Under the pieces are notes generated by a model. It was not told where the DNA came from and ran no database searches. It saw only the letters and a program-made list of their open reading frames with translations. A stretch of DNA of 60,569 nucleotides from Candidatus Woesebacteria bacterium (lineage in GTDB: Bacteria > Patescibacteriota > Microgenomatia > UBA8517): assembly GCA_020060845.1 (NCBI GenBank), contig JAGUZK010000043.1, positions 1 to 60,569 of the forward strand. Direction: 5' to 3'. How positions within the stretch are numbered: the first letter of the stretch is position 1; each line of letters opens with the position of its first letter. The translations under genes were made by a program, and so were the position numbers. Shown piece after piece: positions 5,712-53,704 of this stretch.

Positions 5712-5714
5712 TGG

Positions 5715-15935: not shown

Positions 15936-16901
15936 ATGGTTGCCGTCAATTGGGTTGATTTAGTCATAATTTTAGTTCTTATATATTTTGTACTTGAAGC
16001 TTTTAAGATTGGTTTCTGGGTGACGTTGGCTGATTTTGGATCATTTTTGCTTTCTCTTCTTCTTTCGCTTAGGTTTTATGGGCCTCTTGCTGAAGTTTTT
16101 AGAACCAAGCTATCGGTTCCTTACTCTTTTTCAAAGGCTTTGGGATTTTTGTCTGCTGCCTCTTTTTCTGAACTATTTTTGGGCTATTTGTTTGTCCTGG
16201 GCGCTAAAAGAATACCTCATTCTCTTTGGAAAAGTAGGGTTGTTAATTACCTAGCTTTTTTCCCCGCAGTTGGCGAGGGGATAATTATTTTGTCATTTCT
16301 ACTAACATTGTTATTGGGGCTTCCAATTTCTGATGATGTTAAGAATTCAGTGACTCAATCCAGAATTGGCGGCTACCTCATAAAAAATACTACATTTCTT
16401 GAGAGAAAGACGAAAGAAGTCTTTGGAGGGTTGATTGAAGATTCGCTGACCTACTTTACTGTTAAGCCTGGTTCGCTAGAGGTGATACCTCTTAAGCTGG
16501 GAGAAGTCAAACTAAGCATCGATCTTGATAGTGAACAAAAGATGCTTGATCTTGTAAACCTTGAAAGAAAAAAGGCTGGAATTGGTGAGCTGATTGCTGA
16601 TGATAATTTGAGACTAATAGCAAGAGACTATGCCAGGAATATGTGGGAAAGGGGGTATTTTGGACATTATTCGCCAGAGGGAGAGGATGTAGGTGATAGG
16701 CTGGAGGAAAAAGATATTCCTTACACGATTGCCGGCGAGAATCTTGCCCTTGCACCAACGGTTGGTACTGCCCACACTGGACTTATGAGCTCTGAGGGCC
16801 ACCGCAAAAACATACTTAATTCTGATTTTCGCCGCTTGGGTGTAGGGGTAATTGATAACGGTATTTATGGGAAGATGTTTGTTCAGGTGTTTACAGACTA
16901 G
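15936..16901 (+). CDS. CvpA-like membrane domain fused to CAP/SCP (YkwD-like) domain
   Basis: N-terminal polytopic region. The C-terminus (ARDYARNMWERGYFGHYSPEG...GENLA...GHRKNIL...LGVGV) is typical of CAP domains. Confidence 0.7.
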   Translation: MVAVNWVDLVIILVLIYFVLEAFKIGFWVTLADFGSFLLSLLLSLRFYGPLAEVFRTKLSVPYSFSKALGFLSAASFSELFLGYLFVLGAKRIPHSLWKSRVVNYLAFFPAVGEGIIILSFLLTLLLGLPISDDVKNSVTQSRIGGYLIKNTTFLERKTKEVFGGLIEDSLTYFTVKPGSLEVIPLKLGEVKLSIDLDSEQKMLDLVNLERKKAGIGELIADDNLRLIARDYARNMWERGYFGHYSPEGEDVGDRLEEKDIPYTIAGENLALAPTVGTAHTGLMSSEGHRKNILNSDFRRLGVGVIDNGIYGKMFVQVFTD

Positions 16902-16913
16902 ATAGCCTAAATT

Positions 16914-17255
16914 ATGGTATCTGCTTCTAAAGTTGGCATTTTTAAGAGTATTTATCAGGTTGTCAGACAAATACCCTGCGGGAAGGTTAGCACTTATGGA
17001 AGGGTTGCTGCAAAAGTGTCAACAAGAAGCGATTTTTTGGATCTTGGAGTGAGAGTTACCCCGAGGATGGTTGGATGGGCACTCCACGCGAATAAAGACC
17101 CCAACACTCCCTGCCACAGAGTGGTAGATAGAAATGGAGAACTTGCTCCAAGCTATGCATTTGGTGGTTGGAAAACACAGAGGGAGAAGCTGGTTTCTGA
17201 GGGAGTAGGGTTTTGGGGTCAAAGAAAAGTCAATTTGGATAAGCATCTTTGGTGA
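16914..17255 (+). CDS. MGMT-family methylated-DNA--protein-cysteine methyltransferase DNA-binding domain protein
   Basis: IPCGKVSTYGRVA and the active-site-like PCHRVV motif. Confidence 0.75.
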   Translation: MVSASKVGIFKSIYQVVRQIPCGKVSTYGRVAAKVSTRSDFLDLGVRVTPRMVGWALHANKDPNTPCHRVVDRNGELAPSYAFGGWKTQREKLVSEGVGFWGQRKVNLDKHLW

Positions 17256-17298
17256 TGATTGCCACTTGAGGAGAAGCAACCCAGTGATGTAAATTAAA

Positions 17299-17832
17299 TT
17301 GATGAAAAAGGAGTTGGGGCTTCATCTAATGTATGTGCTGGCAGTTTTTGGGCTTATTGTTGTTGTCAAAAGTTGGTTTACACTGGATTTGGTTGTGCCG
17401 TTTTTTGTTGGAGGTATAATAGGGACATTTTTTCCCTATCTTGATTATCTAGTATATGCATATCTACTAAAGCCGTCTTCTGCCGGCAATGATGGTTCCT
17501 CCCTTGCTAGAGGTACAATTTTGGAGATTATCAGGAAATACCATGGTGATAAAAGTATTGCCGCAGATCTCGTTTTTCACTCGGCTTTATTCCAAGCGGT
17601 TTTCTCGGTCTTTACTTTTTTTATTGTTACCTCATCTGCCAGCCTTTTGGCAAGGGGCATTGTTTTTTCATTCTCGATGCATCTTATCCTGGATCAGGTT
17701 AACCAGTATGTCAGAACGAAAGATATTGAGTCTTGGTTTGCTCGCTTTCCTATTGATCTCGAAGCTGGCCAGAGGCTAACATTTGTTGTTGGGAATGCGG
17801 TTTTGTTGTTTGTTTTTGCATTGTTTTTTTGA
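17299..17832 (+). CDS. Hypothetical polytopic membrane protein
   Basis: 177 aa with several hydrophobic helices. Confidence 0.5.
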   Translation: MMKKELGLHLMYVLAVFGLIVVVKSWFTLDLVVPFFVGGIIGTFFPYLDYLVYAYLLKPSSAGNDGSSLARGTILEIIRKYHGDKSIAADLVFHSALFQAVFSVFTFFIVTSSASLLARGIVFSFSMHLILDQVNQYVRTKDIESWFARFPIDLEAGQRLTFVVGNAVLLFVFALFF

Positions 17833-17876
17833 GTGGGGTTGATCTTGAGAGAAAAATCGGTTAGACTAATATTTCC

Positions 17877-18593
17877 ATGGAAGATCTAAGTAGAAAGCAA
17901 AGAAGAAAGCTTATCCGCGAGCAGAGAAAGCTTGAGAATGAAACAAAGAGGGGTCTATCCAACTTAAAAAAGATCTTTCTTTTATTGTTTGGTGTCTTTG
18001 TGCTTGCCTTCTTGGGTATGAGGACATACAAGTGGTTAGTTACTCCAACCCCTCAAGTTTCGGGGGTTGCCACTCAAGTGCAGGATGGTGACTGGTTCAA
18101 AGGAAGCTCAAGCGCGAGCTTGACCCTAATTGAGTATAGTGACTTTCAATGCCCTGCATGCCGATCATATGCGCCTTTGGTGAAAAGAGTTGCAGATGAG
18201 TACTCCCAGTCGCTAAGAGTAGTCTACAGGCACTTTCCACTTAGCCAGCATAAGAATGCTTACAGTGCAGCAAAGGCTGCTGAAGCAGCTGGTTTGCAGG
18301 GAAAATTTTGGGAAATGCATGACCTGCTTTTTGATAGGCAAGATGAGTGGGCAGATGATTCACAAGTCTTAACTACATTTGAAGCTTATGCGAAAGAGTT
18401 AGGCATTGATGTTGAAAGATTTAAGAATGACTATAAGAGCCAGGAGACAAGTGATGCAGTAGATGGAGATATTTCTTTAGCTAATTCGATTTTTGTAAAT
18501 TCCACACCAACATTTGTGTTTGAGGGCAAGAAAGTGATAATCAGAAGTTATGACGATGTCAAAAAGATGATCGAAGAAAAATTAGGAAACTAA
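17877..18593 (+). CDS. DsbA-like thiol:disulfide oxidoreductase, membrane anchored
   Basis: Single N-terminal TM segment and a CPAC redox motif in a thioredoxin-fold context. Confidence 0.8.
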   Translation: MEDLSRKQRRKLIREQRKLENETKRGLSNLKKIFLLLFGVFVLAFLGMRTYKWLVTPTPQVSGVATQVQDGDWFKGSSSASLTLIEYSDFQCPACRSYAPLVKRVADEYSQSLRVVYRHFPLSQHKNAYSAAKAAEAAGLQGKFWEMHDLLFDRQDEWADDSQVLTTFEAYAKELGIDVERFKNDYKSQETSDAVDGDISLANSIFVNSTPTFVFEGKKVIIRSYDDVKKMIEEKLGN

Positions 18594-35596: not shown

Positions 35597-37154
<1,558 letters not shown>

Positions 37155-37357
37155 CTAAGGAGTTGATTTCACGGCACTTGTGCTTTATGCACAAGCTGTG
37201 ACACACCCCCTTTTAATGTGAGGGTTTAAGGTTATAAAACTTCACAACCTGCTTCCGGCTATATTTTGGATATTAATGTTGCAGACTTGTAAGTTGTAAG
37301 AAAACTGCAAAATTGCCAGTTGGTGAGGCGGGTTTTTTCTCGACTATATAATCTCTT

Positions 37358-38368
37358 CTAGCTTGTTCTTTCCAAGTTTTTTGTGACGATGACACGACCT
37401 TGGTCGTCAGTTCTAAAGGTTACAATAACGGATGAACTGCCATTAAGCGGTTCACTTAAGAATAGACGAATCTTGCCCTCATTTTCCAAGAATTCATAAT
37501 TGGTATATGTCACTATCATTCCTTCTAAGAACTCAAGGTTCTTAACTTTTTCGTAATCTTCATCATTTTGGCTTTCTTTGGGATAAATAATGTAAATTTT
37601 TTTGATGTCCTTGTCTATTACAGTTATCACAAATATTTCTTTATCGTTTAGAACCGGAAAACTTCTGTGATCTCCTTTTATTTCCTTAACTGTGCTATCA
37701 ATATTTTTTGCCTCGGATTGGTGTAGTTCAATGCCACCTGATTGCCAGCCTACTTCTAGAAGTTTTGATTTTTTGGAAAAGATTTGAATATCGTATAAGT
37801 AATAATCATTTCTAACAGATGTAAGGAGTTCGTTTGTATCAAGCACTAATTTGTAAATGTAGTCATCGTCTTCATACTCATAACTATCAGGATTTTGAGA
37901 AAAATAAAGTTTACGTTTAAGGTCCTTTATGTCATATTGAAGGTGATTCAGGTTGGCTCTTATTTCATAGATATCAGAAGAAAAATTTTTTGAAGTCATT
38001 TTTTCTAAAATGTAATCTTCGATTGAAGGATAAATTAATATCGCAAACAGAAGTAGGGTAGTAATAGCAATAAGTGACATATAGATAAGATTGAGGGTCG
38101 AGAGTATCAGTGTTTTTAATAGTTCAAATTTTGCTAAGGCTGATGATAATTTTTTAATAAAACCAATTTCACGAAAAGATATCCTTATCTTTAATATAGA
38201 CTTAGCTATAAAGTAAATAATGAAATAAAAATAAACGATTGCGTTAATTACGATAAATGCTCCAAAAAAAGGTGGGCTTTTGCTCTCAGTTAAAAGGAAA
38301 ATCAAAACATATGTTGCGGAAGAGAAGAAAAATAAGGCAAAGAAAGGGTACATAAGTAAATATAGCAT
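37358..38368 (-). CDS. Hypothetical membrane protein (about 4 N-terminal TM helices plus a soluble acidic C-terminal domain)
   Basis: 336-aa, very AT-rich ORF at the 16S-proximal edge of the island. No motif recognised. Confidence 0.55.
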   Translation of the reverse strand: MLYLLMYPFFALFFFSSATYVLIFLLTESKSPPFFGAFIVINAIVYFYFIIYFIAKSILKIRISFREIGFIKKLSSALAKFELLKTLILSTLNLIYMSLIAITTLLLFAILIYPSIEDYILEKMTSKNFSSDIYEIRANLNHLQYDIKDLKRKLYFSQNPDSYEYEDDDYIYKLVLDTNELLTSVRNDYYLYDIQIFSKKSKLLEVGWQSGGIELHQSEAKNIDSTVKEIKGDHRSFPVLNDKEIFVITVIDKDIKKIYIIYPKESQNDEDYEKVKNLEFLEGMIVTYTNYEFLENEGKIRLFLSEPLNGSSSVIVTFRTDDQGRVIVTKNLERTS

Positions 38369-38606
38369 AAACTATACCTGAGAGAAAAAAGAGGATAATG
38401 ATTATTTTGAAGCAAGGTCTTACTCAGGCAAAGAAGTATCTAGATCAGTTATCGGTGCGGGTAAAACAGAAGAAAATAAGCAGTGGATTGAGGATTTTTC
38501 TTATTTTGTAATTGTGGCGGAGAAAAGTCCTGTCAGGCAGGTGAAATTGCCTGGCTAACGAGTGATAATCCTCTGTTTTATGGCTAGGGTTTTTTGATGT
38601 TTAAAA

Positions 38607-38697
38607 GCGCGGAGGCTAAAAGGCTGACCCGCTTTCCCGGATCTAACCCCGGGACGGCGGACTGCTTTAGAGGCTTTTTGCCCAGTAGCCCCCGCAC
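38607..38697 (-). ncRNA. Candidate structured RNA (unclassified)
   Basis: On the minus strand, GUGCGGGGG pairs with CCUCCGCGC and GUCCGC with GCGGGU. Both include G-U pairs that become A-C mismatches on the plus strand. The inner hairpin is CCCGG-N8-CCGGG. Confidence 0.3.
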
Positions 38698-39151
38698 TTT
38701 TGGATACCAATCTTATCTCAATTATACCTTAAAATAGAAAAATTTCGACTACCTTATTTGGTTTTGTCCACGAAAGCCATCTTTAGCTAGTTGAGGCAGG
38801 CGAGTGTTTTCCTTTTCGATGGATTTCTTCAAGAGCTTCAATTTTTTTCGACTGGATGTCTTTATTCGCGCACCGCTGTTACTTCTTTTGATATAGGATC
38901 AATTTGTACAAGAAGATCACTTATTAGCTTTGTTGTATGTCTCTCAAGTTTTCCTTCAAGTTTAGCTACTTGTGTATAGGGAACCTCTTGCTCTGACAAT
39001 AATTTACTTATAACTTCACTTTGCTTTGCGACAAGCCGGCTCGAGTCAACAAGAATAGTAAATTGTTATACTTTTTATTAAGCCATTTAAGGATTTTCTT
39101 TGTCAACGATAGTTTTTCAAGATGTGATGCCAAGTTTCCGATTTATGATAG

Positions 39152-39225
39152 CCACAGTTTCGTCCCAGCCAAATAGCGAATATCCAGCGGGACTCATCAG
39201 TCCAGTGATTAAGTGGAGACTGTAG
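39152..39225 (-). ncRNA. Type III hammerhead ribozyme motif (HHR-1)
   Basis: Reverse complement: (CU)ACAGUC / UCCA-CUUAAUCAC-UGGA / CUGAUGA / GUCCC-...-GGGAC / GAAA / CUGU(GG). All core positions are present. Stems I and II are loop-closed and stem III is open. Confidence 0.8.
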
Positions 39226-39586
39226 CATTTAGGTAAAGGTATTACATTGGAGTGCGGAGAAGGAGATTGATTTGCGAAGATATAAAAAATTAATGATGCA
39301 AAATGGTTGCATCTTCGCGCTTCAACACTCTGCAGCTCTCACGCACTCCATGGCTATCCCCAGGCACCTTTTCCGAGCCCGCTTTGGACTAATAGGTATT
39401 TCGCCTAAAGACTTTTATAAGCCTAGATTTTATGATCCATTTTTCACCGAAAGCTTTCGGGGTATCACAACTGCCTGCAAACAGTTTCGTGACAAGGATA
39501 TTTGTTTGAGTACTACCTGCGTTCTTTTTCCTTCACCTCAGGGCCAGGTTAGAGGAATGGGGGAAAAACGCCAGATGTCGCCCGAA

Positions 39587-39745
39587 CTAAATCATTTCCG
39601 GAGACCCCATCGCGCAGAAAGCTGCGAGTGCGATAGTAACTGCAATTGCCAAAAAGACCGCAGCAATTTTTTGCGATTTACCTGCAGTCAAGATGGCCAA
39701 GACTGCAGAAACAAGTGCGATTACCAAAAGCCAATTCGCGTTCAT
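39587..39745 (-). CDS. 52-aa two-TM hydrophobic peptide inside the ribozyme-bounded cassette
   Basis: AAAGGAG, 5 nt, then ATG. Translation MNANWLLVIALVSAVLAILTAGKSQKIAAVFLAIAVTIALAAFCAMGSPEMI. It falls below the 60-aa cutoff of the ORF track. Confidence 0.5.
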   Translation of the reverse strand: MNANWLLVIALVSAVLAILTAGKSQKIAAVFLAIAVTIALAAFCAMGSPEMI

Positions 39746-39894
39746 GTTTTCTCCTTTTTGTTAATGTTATGATGAGTATCTTGGTTAATCATCCAATCCT
39801 TCTAAAAAAGCGAGGATTATCACGTACAATATCATCAGATACAACTTGACTCCCTCAAAGGAATTAAATTCCAACTCGCTATTTTAACGAACTA

Positions 39895-39962
39895 ACAGTT
39901 TCGTCCCAGCCAAATAGCGAATATCCAGCGGGACTCATCAGTTCGGCTATGCCGAAGACTGT
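39895..39962 (-). ncRNA. Type III hammerhead ribozyme motif (HHR-2)
   Basis: Reverse complement: ACAGUC / UUCGGC-AUA-GCCGAA / CUGAUGA / GUCCC-...-GGGAC / GAAA / CUGU. The core is complete and stem I has 6 bp. Confidence 0.88.
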
Positions 39963-40150
39963 GTATGAGGAGCTTGATGAAAGAAAATGAAACGTAAATA
40001 AATAATTGCTAATAATAGAAAAAATTTATTGGTTGGGATTTGCATTCCCTTGCTTCATTTAGATTCAAACAAGCTCCTCTGGGAGGAGGGAATTACGGTT
40101 GGCCCCGTAGGCTTTGCTTTCTTAGCCTACAGGGCCAATGCCGTTTCAAA

Positions 40151-40270
40151 TTACAAACCTAAAGCGCTTTGAATGACCGGAATTAATGGAACCACTACGG
40201 TCATCCAACAGGCCACTGTGGCTGCAGCCAATAAGGCGCAGGCTGCGGCGAACTTAACTACTGGCGGCAT
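40151..40270 (-). CDS. 39-aa hydrophobic peptide
   Basis: GGAGG, 8 nt, then ATG. Translation MPPVVKFAAACALLAAATVACWMTVVVPLIPVIQSALGL. Followed by a 14-bp interrupted hairpin (40101-40140). Confidence 0.45.
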   Translation of the reverse strand: MPPVVKFAAACALLAAATVACWMTVVVPLIPVIQSALGL

Positions 40271-40415
40271 GGTTTTTACCTCCTTCCTTTTCTAGTATGA
40301 AAAACCATGGGTGCAGCTAAGCTTTTTAGCTAAACTCAAAGTTCTTCAATCTAATTTTTTAAATGTGCTAAGTAATCTTTTAGATTTCGACAAATGTCAA
40401 AATCTAAAACTTACT

Positions 40416-40518
40416 GGGGACTAGATAGAGGGTGGAAATTAGATGGCGGGGCGCTTAGCGCTTTGCTTTTCGAACAAGTTGTGCTTGTTCTATCTAATTC
40501 TTCTCTCATCTAGTCCCC
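40416..40518. repeat. 103-bp element with perfect 11-bp terminal inverted repeats (MITE-like or long RNA hairpin)
   Basis: GGGGACTAGAT ... ATCTAGTCCCC. The arms extend imperfectly (AGAG/CTCT), with internal hairpins GAACAAG/CTTGTTC and GCGC-tta-GCGC. Confidence 0.5.
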
Positions 40519-40623
40519 CTTGGACACTCTCCTCTCTGGCTCTAGCCAAATCGCCCATATAGAGCAATAGGCATTAATCCAAATTGATAAATCTCCAGGT
40601 CATTCACCGAAGTGAATGCAAAA

Positions 40624-41640
40624 TTACTTGGTGGCATAGATGAAATTGCCGCCAATATCAGAGCCGAATCCAAGTTTATCTCCAAAGGGAATTAAACTTA
40701 CAAACCAGGCGTAGTTGTATGCAACAAATTGCCCACTGCCTGTGAAGATGGCCACGCCGGAATCGTTGGGGGAAATGGCTACTGCCCCTACTCCCCTAAA
40801 GATATCGTTAAAAGCTTCCACTGCAGATAACCATCGTAGCTGCAGCTTTCCTGAGCGGCAAACAAGGTCTCCACCAGATGGCTTCCATTCAACGCGCTCG
40901 CAATACTCATCTGATGAGTAATAGACCCCGTTGCTGTAAAGCACTGCTAATGTGCCCCCAGGAGTGGTAAAGGCCAGCTTATAGGACTGCGCGTCAAGAG
41001 GGACACTGTGGGGGTAACTACCTTTGTACTCGGTCTTTTCGACTTTGCCAGTGAGGTAATTCCCCTTGTATAGGTATCCGTCTTTTCCTCGGAAGTAAAT
41101 CCAGTCTTCCTGAACTAGAACGAATTCTGGTTCGTATCCTACCAGATGACCGAAGCGGTCGATCCGGTTAAGACCGAAGTCATAGACACGAATCGTCCAT
41201 TCACCGCCGGGCTCTTGAACTTGTGCCGAGAAGGCACAATTGTCCCGCGAAATTGTGGGATTACGGAAAGACGCGGCAGCAGCAAATGTCAGATTTGAGA
41301 CGAAGACAGGCCATCCCACTGGATCAATCTCGTAGTATAATATCTCCCACGAGTGGGATTTTTCGTCCCAAACTTCCTGCAGGTATGGCCAAACAGGGCA
41401 TACTTTCACCCTGCCTTCTTCCGGCTTGACGAAAACGGCGGTTTTCAGTGGCAGGGGCGTCTTCGTCTCGCTCGGCGGCGGGCAGCTCGGGTGCGTGGGA
41501 TTGCGACGACACCCCTCGATGCTCATCGCCGTAGCCGCGCTGGTGTTGCTCTGGGGAACTGAAATTGCCACCATGAGCAGGAAAAAGAACAGGGCGGTGA
41601 TAACCGACAGGATACGAAACAGTTTCTGGTTGCGGTTCAT
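40624..41640 (-). CDS. Secreted hypothetical protein (signal peptide plus Pro-rich linker)
   Basis: AAGGAG, 8 nt, then ATG at 41640 (MNRNQKLFRILSVITALFFFLLMVAISV...). Visibly higher G+C than its surroundings. No family recognised. Confidence 0.6.
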   Translation of the reverse strand: MNRNQKLFRILSVITALFFFLLMVAISVPQSNTSAATAMSIEGCRRNPTHPSCPPPSETKTPLPLKTAVFVKPEEGRVKVCPVWPYLQEVWDEKSHSWEILYYEIDPVGWPVFVSNLTFAAAASFRNPTISRDNCAFSAQVQEPGGEWTIRVYDFGLNRIDRFGHLVGYEPEFVLVQEDWIYFRGKDGYLYKGNYLTGKVEKTEYKGSYPHSVPLDAQSYKLAFTTPGGTLAVLYSNGVYYSSDEYCERVEWKPSGGDLVCRSGKLQLRWLSAVEAFNDIFRGVGAVAISPNDSGVAIFTGSGQFVAYNYAWFVSLIPFGDKLGFGSDIGGNFIYATK

Positions 41641-42605
41641 CTCAAAAAACTCCTTTTGGACTAGATTAAAATGGTTCGACCCAATTTTCCTTGCGAGCCA
41701 TTTGAGCTGTGACACTTGGCGTGTGACTTTCACTTCTTTGCCAATGTCATCAGGGCCTTGTTTTCTACTCAGACATTGAGGATTGCGATCTCGACTAGGT
41801 CGAAGAAAGCCTAACTCATGCTTTTTGAAAGCAGGTGCCTTTGTAAGTACCTCACTAGAGGGTGGGGAAGAAACAAGCTTATGGCTTATTTTCTCCGTAC
41901 CCTCTATGAGGATATTGCCTTCAGTAATTTTTACCCGGATATTTAAAAGAGCGATATTAAGTTTCTAACTAACTAAATTTTGCTGTGAGCTATTCACAAC
42001 TTATTCAGTGTTATTAGAAAACTTAAACTGACCTTAACGGTCAGTTGAAAGAGGGCAGTGTTCATAGAAAATTTTGGATCCACCGCAAACCTCTCTCAGC
42101 TAACCGCTAGTGAAATTTCTTTGAGGCCTTAGAGGGATTATTGCGTTGGTGGGTCCAGACAATTTATTAAATTATCCAGACCCCTTAAACGCAAAATCCA
42201 CCTTTAGAGAGGTGGGTAATTATTTAACTATCAAAAAGACAGTTAATCAAAAAATTTTTTAATTAACCGTTACCAGAATCTTGCCAGCTCTGGTAGGGCT
42301 GTCCTCTAAAGCATCTATTATCCTTAGCAAAATGCTTTGGATGTGTAAATTTTCAATTTTTAATTACCCCAGAATAGAAGCTAGTTCAAAACCTTGAGGT
42401 TTTGAGAGCTTCGCTAGCTTATAGCATCTGAGTTCACTATCTCTGCTCGAATTCTAGGAAATTCTCGCAGGTATTGAAATCAGCTGTAATATTAAATTAT
42501 CCTAGAGTGTAAGCAGTCTAGCATATAGAGTGCTATTTGTCAAGTCTCCGCCTTAGGCGGAGTGGTGGGTTGTGAGAAATGAGTAGTGAGTCGTAGAATA
42601 GATAA

Positions 42606-42965
42606 GTGAAGAAAAAGATACAAAGACTTGAAGATATTGAAGTATATAAAGAATCTCTTGTTTTAGCCAAAGAGGTTTTTGACCTTTGCAAGAATCCTAG
42701 CCTAAAAAAAGAGTATTCGATATGTGAACAAATAAAGCGAGCTTGTGTTTCGGTATCTGCTAATATCGCAGAGGGTTATGGAAGACTAATAAGGAAGGAC
42801 TTTTCGCAGTTTCTTTCGATAGCTTTAGGTTCAGTGAACGAGACAGTGGCTTTGCTTGATATTATTGGGGTCAATTTTAGCAATATCGATATAAGAGCTT
42901 TACGGTCAAGCTATAATATTTTGGGGAAGCGAATATACGCTTACAGAAGGAGGTTGTTGTATTGA
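42606..42965 (+). CDS. Four-helix-bundle protein (23S rRNA intervening-sequence protein / Avd-like family)
   Basis: LEDIEVYKESLVLAKEVF...QIKRACVSVSANIAEGYGR...FLSIALGSVNETVALLDI matches the family signature as I recall it. Confidence 0.8.
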   Translation: MKKKIQRLEDIEVYKESLVLAKEVFDLCKNPSLKKEYSICEQIKRACVSVSANIAEGYGRLIRKDFSQFLSIALGSVNETVALLDIIGVNFSNIDIRALRSSYNILGKRIYAYRRRLLY

Positions 42966-43092
42966 ACGCACAACTCATCACTCACTTCTCACTACGATAG
43001 TCGGTACAATCCGAAGACCTTATACATTTTCACACTATCTTTTCACGAGTTCAGATTGAGGCTGGCTATATAAAGGTACCGCTTTTTGATTA

Positions 43093-44052
43093 TTAATGCG
43101 ATGGTTCACGGTCGGATATCATAAAAGGGTAGAAAGGGTAAAAGTCAACTTCTTGAATAATCGGATATACTGTAAGAAGTCTGTCTATGAATTTATTTTT
43201 ACCTATTTCGCTTTTGGGGGATTTGTGTATTTCTTCTTTTGTTTTACCTCCAGCAATGGCTTCGCGGATAAGATATTCGTGTTCGGAGGGTAGCACGAAA
43301 ACTAATTCTCCTTTTTTAACGATAATTGGAGCGTCTCTTCTTATCTCTCGAGGATCTGAATCTGGTAAAAAATTTTTTGGAAGCTTTTGATACAAAAGAT
43401 CGATTATTCTTTCTATTTCACTTAAAGTTACAAAATCGAGCCTAAATCCTTTATGTTTGGGTAAATTGGCGATAAGTCGGGATAATTGATTTTCTCCACT
43501 ACCATCTGTAAACCAGCCGAGCTTGGGCATTCGTTTATCAAAGTCGATTTCGAATTGTTGAAGATGTCTTAAAATATCTTTTTTCTCCATTCCCCTTGCT
43601 GCCATTGCCACTAGTCCCACGACCCACCCTTGTTCGCTAATGATAGTATCAATTTCGTTTTTTACATCGGGAGGTTTTGCGCATACTACTTGATTAACCC
43701 CGATAACCCAGGATGGTAAAAAAAGTTTTACATCTCTAAATGGTGTTTTGCCGACAACTCTTTTGGTCACAAAAGCCATTTGGTTGGCATATCTTATTAA
43801 AAAGGATTGTTTCTCGGGAGGGCTTTTTAGAGTTTCTGCAACTGCTTTCCAGGGGTCTTTTCTGGGGTTGGGGAAATATAGCCCAACAGTTGTTTGGGTA
43901 AATTCAATCGGAGTTTTCGGTGACATTGTGGCAAGGTATGTAAGCATCTCACGGGTTCCGTACCTTCTTCTGAAAGCATGCCCTACATCTGTGTTTGGAT
44001 CAGGGCCAAGTAATGCAACTGCAGCAATCCTTTTAATAGTACTTGCATTCAA
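43093..44052 (-). CDS. Hypothetical protein, probably co-transcribed with the ATPase at 44151-46400
   Basis: 319-aa ORF, same strand, 98 nt downstream of the ATPase gene. No motif recognised. Confidence 0.55.
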   Translation of the reverse strand: MNASTIKRIAAVALLGPDPNTDVGHAFRRRYGTREMLTYLATMSPKTPIEFTQTTVGLYFPNPRKDPWKAVAETLKSPPEKQSFLIRYANQMAFVTKRVVGKTPFRDVKLFLPSWVIGVNQVVCAKPPDVKNEIDTIISEQGWVVGLVAMAARGMEKKDILRHLQQFEIDFDKRMPKLGWFTDGSGENQLSRLIANLPKHKGFRLDFVTLSEIERIIDLLYQKLPKNFLPDSDPREIRRDAPIIVKKGELVFVLPSEHEYLIREAIAGGKTKEEIHKSPKSEIGKNKFIDRLLTVYPIIQEVDFYPFYPFMISDREPSH

Positions 44053-44150
44053 TTCTTGAGGGGTTAGAACACGAGTTTCGGTTCCGTTTATGATTTCTTC
44101 GTATTGAAAGTTTTCTTTTGAAGAAGTACTACCTTCACTTATTGATAAAA

Positions 44151-46400
44151 TTATTTGTGTTCAAGAATTGTAACCTCATTGGGAGTTCCGGTTTGGTTTT
44201 CCTCAATTTCTGTATTTTCAAGTTCTCGAACTTTTTCGTTTTTCAGTTTTTTTGCATACCTTTCTCTTGAGACTCTGATTACTTTTTCGCGGTTCTGATT
44301 TCGTGACATTGGGAGAGGGAGCGTGGTTGCAACAAACGGTCTTACAATATGGCCATCGATTGTCATTCTTATTGCAATTTGGAAGTTCTGCAGGTTGACA
44401 AGGTCGTTTTGTGAAAAAACCTCTGCGAATTCTTTATGTATTCTTGATGCATCTTCAGCTCCAACTGCAAAAGCAATTAGCGTTCCTGCGTTCCCCAAGA
44501 TAGCCTTGGTAACATGTTCCGGGAGCTGACCCATATATTGATTTGCTAAAGTTAGGGAAAGACCAAATTTTCTTGCTTCGGAGAGTATCTTGATAAATGA
44601 ATCTGTGGCAAAATTCTGAAACTCATCAACATATAGAAAAAAGGGAGTCCTTTGCTCTTTGGAGATATCTACTCTTCTCATTGCAGCAAGTTGGAATTTG
44701 GTAATGAGTGTGGCCCCTAGCAAAGCCGCATTATCTTCACCGAGCCGTCCTTGAGAAAGATTTGCAATAAAGATTTTTTTATTATTGATAACTTCATCAA
44801 GCGAAACTGTTGATTTTGGGTAGCCGATAACCCGCCGTATTATAGGGGATGTAACAAACTGCCCGACCTTATTTTGGATGGGAGCTATTGCTTCCTTTTG
44901 AAGCCTATCTGGCATCTTCTCAAATTCTTCTTTCCAAAAGTGGATTAAAGCTGGATCATTAATCTTTGAATAGACCCTATTTCTGTAGGAGCGGTTGGCT
45001 AAAAGGCTTAAAACATCCGATAGCGTGGTTCCAGGAATTTCAGTCAGAGTTAAGAATGAATTACGGAGTATATATTCCATCCTTGCAGACCAGACATTTG
45101 CCCAGACTTTAGTAAAAATGCTCATCAGTCCCGATGTAACAAGTTCTGCTTCTTCTCGATTTGTAACTTCGAGTGGATTAATGGTAATAGGGAATTCCCT
45201 ATCTGCTGGGTTAAAGTAGATTGTATCATTTATGCGATTTTTGGGTATGTAATCAAGCAGATCCTCGCAAAGATCTCCATGCGGGTCAATTACAGCAACA
45301 CCTCGACCTTTTTTAAAATCGTCTATTGCCATATTGGCTATCATTGTGGATTTACCGGTACCAGTTTTTCCCACTGTCCATATGTGTCGGAGCCGATCGG
45401 CATCTTTTATGCCAAAAATAGCATTGTGGTTTTTAAAGATCGTTTTAGCGAAGAAGTTTATTTGAAGCTTTTGAGACTCATCTAGCCCTTCTGCTATTGG
45501 CAGGTTGTTTGGAGGTTCTGAGAGTATGTCTCCTCCCCAGGCAACTCCCGGAACCTTAATCTTTTCATTTGGAAGGTGCCAGAGGGTTGCTATTTCCTCA
45601 ATGTTTAAGATGTTCCCTCCCAGGACACGGCGATTCAGAGTAAAGCTTTTTTCGCGGTTTTTGTCAAACAAAGGTATTTTAAAAACTTTTATTGAGTTTC
45701 CATCAGGACGATTAAAAACCCCCAAGGCGGATAAAAATTCGGTTTGTGTTGTATTTGAATTACTGATAAGCCGTAAACTTACCCTAAACCCCGGGTAATT
45801 AATTTTTTCAAAAATAATATTTGCATCCGGTCTTCTGGTATATGTACCGTCGTCTCTTCTCGTTCCTCTTTCAGCAAAGTCCCTGGCTCTTGATTGCCAA
45901 ATTTCATCTACTGACTCAAGTGCTATCTGAAAAACAAAGACTCCTCCTCTTTCCATCTTTGTTAGGACAGCAAGCAGGGATGAGAGCGGGTCTATCTCGC
46001 TAAAATCTTTATAAACTGCTAGAGGGTAGTAATTTCCTCTTACCAGAGTTAGGCTGATAATATTTAAGTTCTCATTTTTTAGTGGATCTGAAATTTTTTG
46101 GATTGTAGATGTGGGGTAGTTTGATTGAATTTGGGACTCAATAAAAGGTATTAGTTCTTTGTCTGCACTTATCAAAAAGCTTATCTCTTGACCGATTGAA
46201 GCAATTTCCAGAGCTAGACCCTTTGGTTTTTTCCCGAGTAAGATTTTTTCCCAAAATCCAACGCCGTTGATTTTGGTGAGAGCTGAAAGCATTGTCTTTG
46301 CAGCCTCGGGGGTGGTAGACGAATCGCGAGGGGTTTTTATTGAGAGTGTGATAATTTCTGACATAGCTAGTTTATTATACATAAAAGATAGATTAAACAA
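44151..46400 (-). CDS. FtsK/HerA/VirD4-superfamily P-loop ATPase (type IV coupling-protein-like) with unknown ~300-aa N-terminal domain
   Basis: Walker A VGKTGTGKST, VIDPHGD, Walker B FFLYVDEFQNF, and ARKFGLSLTLANQYMGQL resemble TraD/TraG/VirD4-type NTPases. The likely start is MSEIITL at 46364. Confidence 0.65.
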   Translation of the reverse strand: MFNLSFMYNKLAMSEIITLSIKTPRDSSTTPEAAKTMLSALTKINGVGFWEKILLGKKPKGLALEIASIGQEISFLISADKELIPFIESQIQSNYPTSTIQKISDPLKNENLNIISLTLVRGNYYPLAVYKDFSEIDPLSSLLAVLTKMERGGVFVFQIALESVDEIWQSRARDFAERGTRRDDGTYTRRPDANIIFEKINYPGFRVSLRLISNSNTTQTEFLSALGVFNRPDGNSIKVFKIPLFDKNREKSFTLNRRVLGGNILNIEEIATLWHLPNEKIKVPGVAWGGDILSEPPNNLPIAEGLDESQKLQINFFAKTIFKNHNAIFGIKDADRLRHIWTVGKTGTGKSTMIANMAIDDFKKGRGVAVIDPHGDLCEDLLDYIPKNRINDTIYFNPADREFPITINPLEVTNREEAELVTSGLMSIFTKVWANVWSARMEYILRNSFLTLTEIPGTTLSDVLSLLANRSYRNRVYSKINDPALIHFWKEEFEKMPDRLQKEAIAPIQNKVGQFVTSPIIRRVIGYPKSTVSLDEVINNKKIFIANLSQGRLGEDNAALLGATLITKFQLAAMRRVDISKEQRTPFFLYVDEFQNFATDSFIKILSEARKFGLSLTLANQYMGQLPEHVTKAILGNAGTLIAFAVGAEDASRIHKEFAEVFSQNDLVNLQNFQIAIRMTIDGHIVRPFVATTLPLPMSRNQNREKVIRVSRERYAKKLKNEKVRELENTEIEENQTGTPNEVTILEHK

Positions 46401-46647
46401 GGGAGAAGTAAGTATTGGCGTCCAGAGGGGGGGCGTTGTGTCTGGTGGAAATTGGTTGCCTCTTTTGGGTGTTGGGATGGTTTCTATTTTTACTTTTTGA
46501 TTTTTGATCTATTAGATTTTGTGGCCAATTTGTGATAAATTTATAAAAGCAAGTAACTTGAAAAGTATTTTGAGCTTGATGTTTGTGGTCTAGCGGTAAA
46601 GCATTTCTGACAAGACGAGAGTTTTGCTTAAAATTGTAAGTATTTTT

Positions 46648-46720
46648 GCGCGAGTGGCTCAGTGGTTAGAGCACCTTCCTGATAAGAAGGGGGCCGCAGG
46701 TTCGATTCCTGCCTCGCGCA
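46648..46720 (+). tRNA. tRNA-Ile (anticodon GAU)
   Basis: Acceptor GCGCGAG/CUCGCGC, anticodon arm CCUUC-CUGAUAA-GAAGG, T-arm GCAGG-UUCGAUU-CCUGC. Confidence 0.9.
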
Positions 46721-46820
46721 CCCCCATGTACTGGGATCAGACTGTAGGGATTGTAGTAAAGGTTATTGGAGCTCTCGAAAAGAGGTGTAATTGGATAGGC
46801 AGGGATTAAGACGGTGAGGT

Positions 46821-47583
46821 TTGAAATACTTGCAGACTGTGGCAATTATGAAGCTAAAATTTCCCAAATCGCCAACTACATCTTGGGTTATACGAACAAA
46901 GAATGAGGAAAAATGGCTGGGTGAAGTATTAAAAGCCCTTTTTATGCAGAGCCGGTTGGATTTTGAAGTAGTAATTATGGATTCTGGGTCAACAGATAGG
47001 ACCCTAGAAATTGCAAAAGATTTTCCAATTAGAAAAGTTATCAATCTGCCTGAAAATGAATTCAACTACAGTTATGCGCTTAATCTTGGAATTAAAAAGG
47101 CTTGGGGCAAATATGTAGGAATTATCTCTGGTCATTCACTTCCTGTAAGCCGCACATGGTATCAGGATGCAATGGAAAACTTCTCTGACCCAAAAATGGC
47201 AGCTGTGACAGGACACTATACCTCTCTTCCTGATGGTTCCTTAGACGAAAAACTCGGAGATTTATTTTTTAGTCTGAAGCGCTTAGAGAAAGAGTTTTAC
47301 TGTAAGTGGATGACCAATACCAACGCGATTATTAGAAAAGATTTATGGGAAAAAGTATCCTTTTGATGAAAGGCTAGAAGAATGTGAGGATTATGATTGG
47401 GCATGTGAGATGATTGCTCGAGGTTGGAACATAGTTAAAGACCCAAAATTTAATGTCTATCATTCCCATGGTGGAATTGGTAGACCTACCTATATAGAAA
47501 GACTCCCAACTTGGCAAAGGGTTTGTGCTTTAATTGACAAGAAGAAGAGACCAAGCAGGTCGTATTCAAGATTGTTTGGCTGA
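46821..47583 (+). pseudogene. Family 2 glycosyltransferase interrupted by a frameshift (or sequencing error) near 47345-47366
   Basis: The N-terminal part (VIRTKNEEKWL...VIMDSGSTDRT) stops at 47366. The next frame continues YPFDERLEECEDYDWACEMIARGWNIVKDPKFNVYHSHGG... to TGA at 47581-47583. The shift lies at the GGGAAAAAG run. Confidence 0.7.
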
Positions 47584-47750
47584 GTTTTTTCTTCTGTAGT
47601 TTGAAAAGATCTGCTTGGTCTGACATTAACCTTTTTTACAAGAATGTAGGGGTGTTTGAGTTATAAGGTTAATTTCTTTGCTGCGAAAGAGGTAAAACCA
47701 GGCTAGCGAAAGGAATTTGCAAGGTGAGGAGGCTTGGTAGCATGCCATTT

Positions 47751-49415
47751 CTAATGATTTCCATACGCGTCTGCCATATATTGAGTTTTCTCCGACATTA
47801 TTCTTAAGAGGTCCGTTTTTTCATTCTTGATTATATTTCTTAGCTCAGAAATATTTTTGACCCCCAGATCCGCCAGGGTTCGCGCTGCATAACTTAAGTA
47901 CTCATTTATCCAAAAAGACATCGAGTTTGCCTTCTTTTCAAGGTACATAAAACCAGGTTTCCCTTCAGGGTTATATGTCCTTCCTGAGGCGTCTGACCTT
48001 TTCTGTCTTATATTTTCGTCTTCAGACTCAATTAATTGAGTTACAGGACTTGCAGATCCGGGATAAGGTTGGCACACCTTACCATTTAAGTGTTGGAAAA
48101 ATAAGTCTCCGGTTTCAATTGTCCCGTGTACCATTTTCTGGTTACCAAGGCAGCAGTCTATACCCATTATCAGGGCGGTCCCTATTGATCTGTCGATACC
48201 TCCCTCTACTATTACTGAGGTAGAGTTAAAAACAGGATCGGTTACAACATTATAGACATCTTCGACGGTTGTTATTGCCATTCCGTTTATGGCTGATGTG
48301 CACTGTTGTCCGCCACCATGTCCAAAGACGAGGGCATCCACACGGATCTTGGGAGAAATCAACCTTAATGCTTGATTTTTGTCGGCGATTTGACCTACAA
48401 AAATTTCAATTGTATCTCCAAATTCGGCCCTTAATGCCTGTGCCATGTCTATTACTCTTTTGTCTGATCCGATGGTATAGATTCTAAAAAGCCTGATTCC
48501 AGCTTTTTCATAAAGTTTTTTGGCAACTTTAATCTCCTCCTCAACATCAATTCCTATTGATGCACCAATGTTTCTATTGACTCTTTCTTTTTCTGCAGGG
48601 GGGATCTTAAGTTGATCAATGGTTGACTTTGCCTTGTTAGCAAGTGAAATTCTTCTTTCTATATCAAAAGCGAAAATAGAATTTCTGGGGATAAAGCAGG
48701 GCATATAGGCAATTGCCGCTGTGACAAGCGTATCTCTCCAGCCAGTAACGGGAGGCATTGACCCCAGCCCTATTATTCTCCTTGGATATTTACCGACCTT
48801 GTTGAAAAGACCGCTAGTTAAGATTTCGCGCCTGCTTATTATTCTGTCGGTGCTTCTCTTTTTATATCCTAGCTCGGAAAATGCGGGAGTTCGGGTTGGA
48901 AACGGGTAGCTTTTGCTAAATCCTAGAGAGGCCTCAATAGTTTTGGATCTTTGATTGGATCGAGGGGGAATACTAATAATTTGTGCTTCAAGGTCATGGA
49001 TTATTTTGTATATTGTCTCGTTTTGGTTTTGGTCAAAGAAAACTGCTCGTTGGGCAAGTGCAACCTTTCGCCTTTGAGGTCCCATTTGCAAGATCAAGGG
49101 AATGCTGTTTTTGAATACCAGCCTAGTGCTATCAATGTTAGTTATTATTAACCCCAAGCTTGGTGAGTCATGTTTATAAAAATAGCGAGTATAAAAGGTC
49201 TTTGTATCAGCTATGATATCTGGGTAGTGTTTTAACTTATCTGTGTCATCAAGACATTCAAGATGGTAAGCAAAGTCAAGCCCGTTTTTACTTATTTGAT
49301 CATATCTTATTCTTGATATCTCCTCGGGATATGGTTCGGGAAGAGGGTGGGAGTATCCGATCTTTTTTCCTTTGGGGTCGACAACTCTTGCAAGGGTAAT
49401 ACCTTTTTTGTACAT
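47751..49415 (-). CDS. IMPDH/GMP-reductase-family TIM-barrel protein with a long unrelated N-terminal region
   Basis: The C-terminal half has FGHGGGQQCTS (catalytic Cys loop-like) and VIVEGGIDRSIGTALIMG (phosphate-binding-like). The N-terminal ~250 aa were not recognised. Confidence 0.55.
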   Translation of the reverse strand: MYKKGITLARVVDPKGKKIGYSHPLPEPYPEEISRIRYDQISKNGLDFAYHLECLDDTDKLKHYPDIIADTKTFYTRYFYKHDSPSLGLIITNIDSTRLVFKNSIPLILQMGPQRRKVALAQRAVFFDQNQNETIYKIIHDLEAQIISIPPRSNQRSKTIEASLGFSKSYPFPTRTPAFSELGYKKRSTDRIISRREILTSGLFNKVGKYPRRIIGLGSMPPVTGWRDTLVTAAIAYMPCFIPRNSIFAFDIERRISLANKAKSTIDQLKIPPAEKERVNRNIGASIGIDVEEEIKVAKKLYEKAGIRLFRIYTIGSDKRVIDMAQALRAEFGDTIEIFVGQIADKNQALRLISPKIRVDALVFGHGGGQQCTSAINGMAITTVEDVYNVVTDPVFNSTSVIVEGGIDRSIGTALIMGIDCCLGNQKMVHGTIETGDLFFQHLNGKVCQPYPGSASPVTQLIESEDENIRQKRSDASGRTYNPEGKPGFMYLEKKANSMSFWINEYLSYAARTLADLGVKNISELRNIIKNEKTDLLRIMSEKTQYMADAYGNH

Positions 49416-49450
49416 GATAAAACCGCAAAAATGATATATTATTTCTGGGA

Positions 49451-50047
49451 GTGTTGCAATATGCCCAAAAGGATATAGCTATTGAAATGTCATCAAAAAT
49501 CAATGTTTACACTAGAAATCAGAAAAAAGTTGAGGAGATAAAGAGGCTGCTGCCGGCTGTTGAACTAGTTTCCTGTGATCTTGAAGTCGAAGAGATCCAA
49601 TCTCTAGATCCCGTCGAAGTTGCCGTTGCTAAGGCCAAACAAGCATATGAGAAAAGTCAAAAGCAAGCTGGAATTATTGAAGATGTATCTTTGAATATCA
49701 ATTATCTTAATGGCCTGCCTGGAACTTATATAGATGCCTTTATGAAAACGCTTGGAAATGATGGAATATTAAAAATTCTTAGAGGTGCAAAAGACCGAGG
49801 GGCTGAAGCTTTGATTATTGTCGTCTATACGGATGAGAAAGGTGACATGCATATTTTTGACGGAAGAGTAAAAGGAAGAATATCTGATAAGGTACTTGGG
49901 GAGGGTTTTGGTTGGGATCCTATATTTATTCCCGAAGGAGATGATCAGACTTTTGCCCAGATGACGCCGGAACAGAAGGATAAATTTTCCATGCGAGCTA
50001 TTGCTTTTAGGAAACTGGGGTTGTGGCTGCAGGGTCTTGACGGATAG
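49451..50047 (+). CDS. rdgB: Non-canonical purine NTP pyrophosphatase (RdgB/HAM1 family)
   Basis: GLPGTYIDAF, FGWDPIFIPEG...TFAQM and KDKFSMRAIA motifs. The likely start is ATG 49487. Confidence 0.8.
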   Translation: MLQYAQKDIAIEMSSKINVYTRNQKKVEEIKRLLPAVELVSCDLEVEEIQSLDPVEVAVAKAKQAYEKSQKQAGIIEDVSLNINYLNGLPGTYIDAFMKTLGNDGILKILRGAKDRGAEALIIVVYTDEKGDMHIFDGRVKGRISDKVLGEGFGWDPIFIPEGDDQTFAQMTPEQKDKFSMRAIAFRKLGLWLQGLDG

Positions 50048-50195
50048 GATATTATCTATGTATAATAGGCATTGCCTTTTAATTTTAATGATTTTGAGGC
50101 ACGGTTTCTGCTAATGAGAAAAATCTTGACAAGAGTAAACCAACTAAAGCGGGTTTTTTTGTTGTTGTAGATTATTTCTAGAGAAAGTAGCAGAT

Positions 50196-50218
50196 ACCGG
50201 CCTTGAGCCGGTTTTTTT
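50196..50218 (+). terminator. Rho-independent terminator
   Basis: ACCGGC-cttga-GCCGGT followed by T7. Confidence 0.6.
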
Positions 50219-50244
50219 ATGATGTAGGTTATGATTCGCAACTG

Positions 50245-50317
50245 GGGCCGTTGGCTCAGTTGGTAGAGCGCGTCATTTGCAATGACGAGGTCGCCGGTTC
50301 GATCCCGGCACGGTCCA
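50245..50317 (+). tRNA. tRNA-Ala (anticodon UGC)
   Basis: Acceptor GGGCCGU/ACGGUCC with the G3:U70 identity pair, anticodon arm CGUCA-UUUGCAA-UGACG, T-arm GCCGG-UUCGAUC-CCGGC. Confidence 0.9.
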
Positions 50318-50528
50318 CCCTAGCTGGGCGGATCGAGGTAGGTCTTGACAGTTATTGAATGGTGGTTGGCAACTGGAATAATTATCGTTGCGAGCCACCA
50401 CTCAAGGATTGTTAAGACTAGCTATTTTGATATTGCACCTTGACAACTGAAGAGAAAGAATAATCGACCACAATTTCTGTTATTGTGGTCGTAAGTAGGC
50501 CAATTCCTTGTATTTTTACAAGGTTAAT

Positions 50529-53523
<2,995 letters not shown>

Positions 53524-53582: not shown

Positions 53583-53704
53583 TGTCCTGGTGAAGATATC
53601 GCCATCGAACCACCCTTACCCATTCCGAACAAGGAAGTGAAAGGTGGCAGAGCGGACGATAGTTGCCCGGCAACGGGTTGCGAAAATACGTCATCGCCAG
53701 GACA
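53583..53704 (+). rRNA. rrf: 5S rRNA
   Basis: Terminal helix TGTCCTGG.../...CCAGGACA and internal CCCATTCCGAACAAGGAAGTGAAA. Confidence 0.85.

Follow-up and report, generated by a model that had tools for sequence, protein, structure and literature searches.

Unlinked rRNA genes, with genes on the opposite strand lying between 16S and 23S, are known in the Candidate Phyla Radiation (CPR) and are clade-specific (Lui et al. 2021, PMC8172020; Brewer et al., bioRxiv 10.1101/705046). The locus described here, from a Candidatus Woesebacteria bacterium, resembles these cases in both respects and differs from them in that its intervening content combines conserved parts with a variable slot. It is a segment of 9.5 kb running from the 16S rRNA gene to tRNA-Ile (the interval), studied within a window that is an entire contig of 60,569 bp, present at both NCBI and JGI, whose proteins have their nearest relatives in Candidatus Woesebacteria and other Patescibacteria. 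The unlinked-rRNA arrangement of Patescibacteria is already known; what is new is the conserved intervening block, its conserved non-coding RNAs and the replaceable middle, none of which is described in PMC8172020 or bioRxiv 10.1101/705046. The interval is probably resident in the chromosome of a Woesebacteria-type Patescibacterium and passed on vertically, its position being inherited with it, and there is a reasonable case that the 16S gene has long been separated from the tRNA-Ile/tRNA-Ala/23S/5S block in this lineage.

Orphan homologues of coupling proteins are common in Patescibacteria, at about two per genome, and are rarely found near virB4 (PMC12102498). The interval encodes an ATPase of this kind which, like most of these homologues, is not beside virB4. 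It shares with the type IV coupling proteins (VirD4/TraD/TrwB) the P-loop FtsK/HerA-type domain, TrwB_AAD_bind and TraG-D_C; in contrast to them, it lacks an N-terminal membrane anchor, carries a DUF8128 N-domain and scores under the curated cut-offs. Single genes flanked by several hammerheads are a known feature of bacterial and prophage DNA, where the ribozymes are presumed to act in the processing of long transcripts (Perreault et al. 2011, PMC3088659). Two type III copies in the window likewise lie on one strand and bracket one small gene, but they are found in an rRNA-gene interval without integrase or prophage genes, have an unusually long stem II and share a 48-nucleotide (nt) core. 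The interval also contains a gene of the 23S-rRNA-IVP family. Proteins of this family are related to Avd, the accessory protein of diversity-generating retroelements. The window gene shares the family and the rRNA-region setting, but it sits between 16S and tRNA-Ile rather than inside 23S and is accompanied by neither a reverse transcriptase nor template/variable repeats. Finally, the locus has in common with trans-acting small RNAs and integron-like cassette sites a promoter and leader placed before changeable genes and a loop complementary to the leader (a predicted pairing); unlike integrons, it has no integrase and no attC-like sites.

The rRNA and tRNA genes that define the locus are arranged as follows.

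35597-37154, plus strand: 16S rRNA gene, one boundary of the interval
46647-46723, plus strand: tRNA-Ile(GAT), the other boundary, divergent from the ATPase gene
50245-50319, plus strand: tRNA-Ala
50541-53513, plus strand: 23S rRNA gene
53586-53702, plus strand: 5S rRNA gene

The 16S and 23S genes are separated by 13.4 kb (37154 to 50541) and the main open reading frames (ORFs) between them are on the minus strand, which makes these rRNA genes unlinked in the sense of Brewer et al. (16S and 23S more than 1500 bp apart), here with opposite-strand genes in the gap. Both genes look uninterrupted in the window (1558 nt for 16S and 2973 nt for 23S). By consensus match, a terminator-like hairpin (37148-37162, plus strand) overlaps the 3´ end of 16S and a promoter-like site (46607-46634, plus strand) is located just 5´ of tRNA-Ile, both consistent with separate transcription of 16S and of the tRNA/23S block.

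The conservation of this position was analysed in 160 related loci from scans of species-representative genomes and metagenomes, with up to 80 loci per scan, so that the locus counts are lower bounds. The ATPase gene is found between or beside rRNA genes, always antisense to them, in at least 17 distinct loci other than the window (L001, L003, L004, L007, L087-L092, L095, L097, L104, L131, L139, L171 and L173). At least 7 loci carry 16S on one side and 23S on the other, and tRNA-Ile is directly upstream of the ATPase gene in at least 13 related loci. The contigs of the best ATPase homologues share one layout: 5S-23S, tRNA-Ala, tRNA-Ile, the opposite-strand ATPase gene and then 16S. The flanks are also syntenic, with RadA and an S1-domain protein beyond 5S and tRNA-Glu/Lys/Gln beyond 16S. 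Across the linked loci the ATPase is 49-70% identical to that of the window, while the arrangement never occurs at loci with ATPase identity of 47% or lower and is also missing in a few at 50-53% (L006, L093, L094 and L146). A simple distance tree of 119 ATPases, built by neighbour joining, places the linked loci in two neighbouring groups with 13 and 3 members.

Among loci, between 94 nt and 8 kb separate the ATPase stop codon from the 3´ end of 16S, and in several lineages the ATPase gene is the only one there. The partner gene, the IVP-family gene, the promoter block, the leader, the small RNA and the 4-transmembrane (4-TM) protein, described below, are each in place in 3-7 lineages, and the sub-clade closest to the window keeps these parts in the same order. 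Other samples yield only identical copies of the locus, and a 103-kb sister contig stops near the 16S gene. Many GTDB-representative metagenome-assembled genomes with this ATPase are titled 'uncultured Gammaproteobacteria', 'Pseudomonadales' or 'Bdellovibrionales' (L010, L013, L014, L018-L021 and others); these titles look unreliable.

The end of the interval next to tRNA-Ile contains three genes.

44151-46400, minus strand: VirD4-like ATPase, an ORF of 749 aa whose real start is probably 46364 (737-aa gene call)
43093-44052, minus strand: partner protein of 319 aa, lineage-restricted
42606-42965, plus strand: four-helix-bundle gene of the 23S-rRNA-IVP family (PF05635/TIGR02436)

The ATPase matches the Pfam families TrwB_AAD_bind (E=4.6e-12, 46 bits against a cut-off of 20.5), DUF87 and TraG-D_C (28.7 bits, cut-off 22), and contains the Walker motifs GKTGTGKST and VDEFQ; the DUF8128 N-terminal domain is indicated by precomputed PF26449 assignments on its homologues. 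Its NCBIfam scores are far under the cut-offs (43 versus 366 bits for TIGR03743, 37 versus 250 and 40 versus 600), so that none of the curated TraD, VirD4-like or CedD thresholds is reached, and the match to TrwB in PDB (E=0.003) covers the P-loop only. No transmembrane segment was found, since none of the 19-residue windows across the 749 aa has a mean hydropathy of 1.6 or more. With 7001 homologues at E≤1e-5, a family of thousands across Patescibacteria, the ATPase is, judged from its sequence, a soluble FtsK/HerA-superfamily member belonging to the Patescibacteria-wide 'orphan coupling-protein' family. No relaxase or type IV secretion genes were found in the scanned ORFs of the window, which comprised the interval, the genes as far as 50 kb and ten larger ORFs from other parts and did not exhaust the 60-kb contig, nor in the called genes of related loci.

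The partner protein has no family match in Pfam, NCBIfam, PHROGs or PADLOC, and its homologues amount to only 5 clusters among 5.8 billion proteins. It always follows the ATPase directly (L001 and L171). Its AlphaFold2 model has a pLDDT of 82.5, and a fold search against PDB gave no match at E≤0.001. The four-helix protein, on the other side of the partner, is a clear member of its family (PF05635, E=1e-24, 87.2 bits against a cut-off of 33.8; TIGR02436, 85.7 bits, cut-off 24) and matches 2gsc in PDB (E=3e-10). Orthologues are in the same place in L001, L004 and L171, and a truncated copy is found in L096. A diversity-generating retroelement, a candidate raised by this Avd-like gene, was rejected on account of the missing reverse transcriptase and repeats. 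In relatives, extra IVP-family genes, group I introns and LAGLIDADG endonuclease genes are present in or beside 16S and 23S, at 2387-2752, 3736-3990, 16659-17985 and 19700-20062 of L171 and at 4609-4798 and 20503-21217 of L087.

Beyond the IVP-family gene lies a stretch without credible ORFs which contains a promoter and a leader, and a small RNA is encoded near the 16S end of the interval.

41734-42605: stretch without credible ORFs, 872 nt if the next gene starts at its GTG and 965 nt if it starts at its ATG
42515-42543, minus strand: sigma-70-type promoter, TTGACA-17-TAGACT with a TG extension, facing the cargo
42303-42312, minus strand: leader motif GCUUUAGAGG, exact complement of the internal-loop sequence of the small RNA
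42034-42110, minus strand: long leader hairpin, the main structured feature of the stretch
38598-38708, minus strand: small RNA of about 110 nt, with its own promoter-like site at 38748-38721

All ORFs in the stretch from 41734 to 42605 are of 61 aa or less, and no Pfam match was obtained in any of its frames. The promoter is the top promoter match of the interval and is embedded in a conserved 60-nt block just beyond the IVP-family gene, from which it faces away; the gene and the cargo promoter are divergent. This block is kept in the window and six other lineages. The leader hairpin is located about 400-470 nt downstream of the promoter, and RNAalifold analysis showed compensatory changes in 10 of its 29 pairs, together with many G-U pairs that fit the minus strand only. 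In the small RNA, 13 of the 34 pairs are compensatory, and its covariance model scores 95-110 bits in sense versus 23-37 bits in antisense over six lineage copies. Relatives carry an intrinsic terminator after it.

The large internal loop of the small RNA contains the invariant sequence AAAAnCCUCUAAAGCA. Within this loop, the invariant CCUCUAAAGC is the exact complement of GCUUUAGAGG, the conserved motif of the leader. The 10-mer of the motif occurs twice in the window, once in the leader and once in the small RNA, versus 0.19 expected, and across 2.4 Mb of related loci it hardly occurs outside this clade. The ordered pair, motif and then complement on the promoter's strand, was found in L001, L004/L175, L087, L089, L171 and L173, while the complement match in L096 is within an ORF and is probably due to chance. 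Just 120-320 nt, without any cargo, separate the motif from its complement in L089 and L087, and in L089 a terminator-like hairpin follows the motif. Searches of Rfam 15 with the small RNA and the leader returned nothing at E≤1 across the interval and nothing credible at E≤10 over 38520-38800. A signal recognition particle RNA, 6S RNA or other known RNA was accordingly rejected as the identity of the small RNA, and viral contigs lack its motif. Two copies of the small RNA are present in L001 (16690-16803 and 19863-19970), and a 41-aa hydrophobic ORF with a Shine-Dalgarno site lies 45 nt upstream of the first.

The last gene before the 3´ end of 16S encodes a membrane protein.

37358-38368, minus strand: AT-rich membrane protein with about 4 TM segments, GC 0.313

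Homologues occupy the same place in L173 (67% identity) and L175 (45%). These orthologues are likewise AT-rich relative to their own loci, so that the composition of the gene characterises the family and does not point to transfer.

Between the leader and the small RNA, at about 42.0-38.7 kb, the interval holds a cargo region whose genes vary by lineage and are mostly non-homologous. In the window it contains the following features.

40624-41733, minus strand: GC-rich TolB-like beta-propeller protein, 338 aa from the ATG at 41640
40416-40518, minus strand: imperfect long inverted-repeat hairpin of 103 nt, just 3´ of the propeller gene
40151-40270, minus strand: ORF for a 39-aa hydrophobic peptide with a GGAAGGAGG ribosome-binding site, followed by a GC-rich hairpin
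39893-39964, minus strand: type III hammerhead 1 (Rfam Hammerhead_3, 38.4 bits, E=1.4e-5; predicted cleavage 39957/39956)
39587-39745, minus strand: ORF for a 52-aa two-helix membrane peptide, between the hammerheads, with a Shine-Dalgarno site
39152-39225, minus strand: type III hammerhead 2 (Rfam Hammerhead_3, 39.5 bits, E=7e-6; predicted cleavage 39218/39217)

The propeller protein consists of one N-terminal hydrophobic helix (a signal or anchor), a disordered linker and the beta-propeller, modelled by AlphaFold2 with a pLDDT of 80 and matching TolB best in PDB (E=2e-9). The domain is rare, with 16 representatives among 1.84 billion proteins, and no counterpart was found in related loci; its closest homologue is on a contig of 49-55% GC. 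The gene has a GC content of 0.507 against a background of 0.403, with a GC content at third codon positions of 0.562, and it is probably a recent acquisition, the only such candidate in the interval by composition. The 103-nt hairpin has a folding energy of -42.8 kcal/mol (z -7.3). It had been described as a mobile-element-like, terminal-inverted-repeat element of 103 bp: the inverted repeat is indeed there, but neither the window nor 2.4 Mb of related loci has a second copy, identical re-assemblies aside, which leaves mobility unsupported; a miniature inverted-repeat transposable element was rejected on this ground.

The two hammerheads have an identical 48-nt core and are 741 nt apart. Both fill all 54 positions of the model, with the CUGAUGA...GAAA core, a U-H cleavage site and three stems, stem III being open. 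Hammerheads with a long stem II are present in the same slot and on the promoter's strand in L087 and L096 (Rfam), and a shorter one in L090. An alignment of seven hammerheads with MAFFT and RNAalifold missed the three-way junction, whereas checks of each sequence recovered the stems. A pattern scan also gave three type III candidates within 2.2 kb at 4203-6385 (minus strand) of L008, upstream of a Levybacteria ATPase homologue that is not rRNA-linked, and single candidates in L009, L019 and L101. The 52-aa peptide between the window hammerheads is called as an identical protein in JGI assemblies. Two JGI contigs, L169 1-992 (40138 to 39215 of the window) and L170 1-909 (40123 to 39215), from samples 3300007351 and 3300007354, span the peptide/hammerhead unit only. 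Both stop 3 nt past the predicted cleavage site of hammerhead 2, and L169 starts with an Illumina adapter fused at 40138. These ends may be RNA ends if the libraries are RNA-derived; no permuted junction, as expected for a circular or tandem unit, was seen in either contig. From hammerhead 2 to the small RNA (38790-39135, minus strand), the window has only short, coiled-coil-like ORFs of 41 and 45 aa, which may be remnants of a broken gene, and in L096 a 126-aa coiled-coil ORF lies beside the hammerhead on the opposite strand.

Slot genes in relatives encode surface-type proteins and toxin-antitoxin systems, with LAGLIDADG endonucleases near 16S. The toxin-antitoxin genes include a Pfam HicA_toxin in L172 (15077-15301) and BrnT in L088 (5297-5641); in L096 (4093-4549), a HicA-like ORF and an overlapping ORF, possibly its antitoxin, were recognized by eye.

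The interval is built from two fixed ends and a changeable middle. The tRNA-Ile end consists of the ATPase with its DUF8128 and coupling-protein-like domains, the lineage-specific partner and the IVP-family gene, and the 16S end of the structured small RNA of about 110 nt and the 4-TM protein; between them, the conserved strong promoter and the structured leader face the lineage-variable genes. It is proposed that from this promoter one long transcript would be driven through the cargo and cut by the hammerheads into single-gene RNAs, among them a 739-nt piece (39956 to 39218) bearing the 52-aa ORF. The small-RNA loop (CCUCUAAAGC) would pair with the leader motif (GCUUUAGAGG), or form an intramolecular contact with it, to control the read-through or stability of the cargo. 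The slot would change by replacement of the cargo, the interval as a whole staying in place. The ATPase and its partner would work as a nucleic-acid or protein translocase unrelated to conjugation. A more far-reaching idea, speculative and on balance doubtful, is that the split rRNA locus may host an RNA-controlled expression site for exchangeable surface and membrane genes, in which the small RNA gates the leader through its invariant loop of 10-12 nt, hammerheads cut the transcript and the 739-nt RNA is possibly circularised. This would amount to a cassette platform without an integrase.

Several observations weigh against this account. A few unlinked loci interleave between the linked groups of the ATPase tree, implying that the arrangement was gained twice, or gained once with at least one loss. 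The promoter/leader/small-RNA module was undetected in about half of the rRNA-linked loci (L088, L090-L092, L095, L097 and L007). The leader motif and the loop are both invariant, so that their pairing has no support from covariation, and a protein-binding site in double-stranded DNA would equally explain a motif accompanied by its complement. Both hammerheads score under the Rfam gathering threshold of 48.5 bits, a shortfall that accompanies a 23-nt insertion in stem II. The promoter, the terminators, the RNA pairing and the hammerhead activity are all predictions.

Among the competing explanations, the one that fares best, though it is still somewhat unlikely, is neutral: the broken rRNA operon would be a permissive gap that collects unrelated genes, selfish RNAs and homing-type elements, and its conserved pieces would reflect shared ancestry without any functional link. 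The size of the gap, from 94 nt to 8 kb, agrees with such a junkyard, as does a cargo that is mostly non-homologous among lineages and the presence there, in relatives, of LAGLIDADG endonucleases, BrnT and HicA toxins and a beta-lactamase-like gene. The same is true of a further insertion, 3.5 kb of ordinary genes that split tRNA-Ile from tRNA-Ala in the window (46724-50244). This insertion contains a GT2 glycosyltransferase gene (181 aa, possibly broken and followed by a 57-aa ORF), the gene for a 554-aa protein with an IMPDH/GMP-reductase domain, and a Ham1 (non-canonical NTP pyrophosphatase) gene; in most relatives the spacing between the two tRNA genes is just 200-600 nt. However, against a passive gap, the promoter, leader hairpin and small RNA have been kept, with compensatory changes, amid gene turnover. 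The motif and its complement are, moreover, invariant and ordered in six lineages, and hammerheads recur on the promoter's strand.

A type I toxin-antitoxin-like module, with the tiny hydrophobic peptides as toxins and the small RNA as an antisense-type antitoxin acting on a shared leader, is very unlikely. The complementarity of the leader to the small-RNA loop would suit it, and so would the strong ribosome-binding sites of the 39-aa and 52-aa peptides and the hydrophobic ORFs found elsewhere (the 41-aa ORF before the L001 small-RNA copy and one of 58 aa upstream of the L096 hammerhead). However, the two peptides are not homologous to each other, the complementary site is about 2 kb upstream of their ORFs, and no peptide was found in L173, L004/L175 or L089 despite the presence of the small RNA and the motif.

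The interval had been interpreted in the initial annotation as possibly a decayed integrative element. All nine features listed there were found where they had been placed, and the absence of housekeeping genes was borne out, as no gene of the interval has a recognised housekeeping function. According to the proposal of a decayed integrative or conjugative element, 9 kb would have been inserted beside tRNA-Ile and would later have lost the integrase, relaxase and transfer genes. The coupling-protein-like ATPase, the adjacent tRNA gene, two segments of atypical composition, distant ATPase relatives on plasmids and a strong PHROG match all speak for it. Nevertheless, gene order at this position is conserved across the lineage for most of the interval, the observation that the initial annotation itself had named as fatal to its proposal: the position is held in at least 17 loci down to 49% ATPase identity, with syntenic flanks. 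Furthermore, the interval adjoins the 5´ side of tRNA-Ile and not its 3´ end, and neither att-like or other border repeats nor tRNA fragments were found; the only exact direct repeat is the 48-nt hammerhead core, other repeat families being short and 70-88% identical.

The reported lack of an integrase, transposase, relaxase or reverse transcriptase was confirmed by searches of all ORFs with Pfam, NCBIfam, PHROGs and PADLOC and of the ten longest stop-to-stop frames of the non-coding parts with Pfam, so that remnants of mobility genes are absent from the ORFs and the long frames. The DNA of the interval has no similarity to 72,556 plasmids and 50,697 phages, and for the ATPase no protein from a plasmid or phage reaches a coverage of 80%. 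A plasmid or phage origin was rejected, given that there is no DNA match and the ATPase matches are distant and partial, and only 7 viral contigs contain a partial relative of the ATPase.

The several changes in base composition noted from the sequence were measured in 1-kb windows. Against a background of 82 windows (GC 0.403 ± 0.018), two of about 18 windows in the interval lie outside the whole background range of GC: 37.5-38.5 kb (z -5.4) and 40.5-41.5 kb (z +5.4). Their tetranucleotide distances are likewise greater than any in the background, and the rest of the interval is typical. The first outlier is the family trait of the conserved AT-rich gene, and the ATPase and partner genes are of native composition. 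The suggestion of a mosaic of acquisitions holds for the central cargo (about 42.0-38.7 kb), which is lineage-specific and includes the compositionally foreign propeller gene, but not for these native or family-typical parts. The decayed-element interpretation is largely refuted and has only a slight chance of being correct.

Finally, an assembly chimera joining rRNA-containing contigs is hardly credible: rRNA genes and repeats commonly break or misjoin metagenome assemblies, and other assemblies of this organism do break at 16S and at the hammerhead repeat, but over 39913-51724, 42657-45786 and 41898-44670 the locus has been assembled independently from other runs with 100% identity, and the architecture is repeated in many relatives.

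Read as a probably resident and inherited part of the chromosome, the interval removes a false lead, since a coupling-protein-like ATPase beside a tRNA gene is here not a mobile element. On this reading, the rRNA operon was split long ago in one clade of Patescibacteria, and the gap has a constant complement of genes and RNAs, which bears on methods based on 16S-23S amplicons and on binning, as well as on the reading of rRNA-adjacent 'islands' in CPR. A widespread orphan homologue of coupling proteins gains a co-inherited partner, with which its interaction can be tested. Moreover, the locus offers three testable RNA elements, namely the promoter and leader hairpin, the small RNA and the hammerheads of the slot, in organisms whose gene regulation is almost unstudied.

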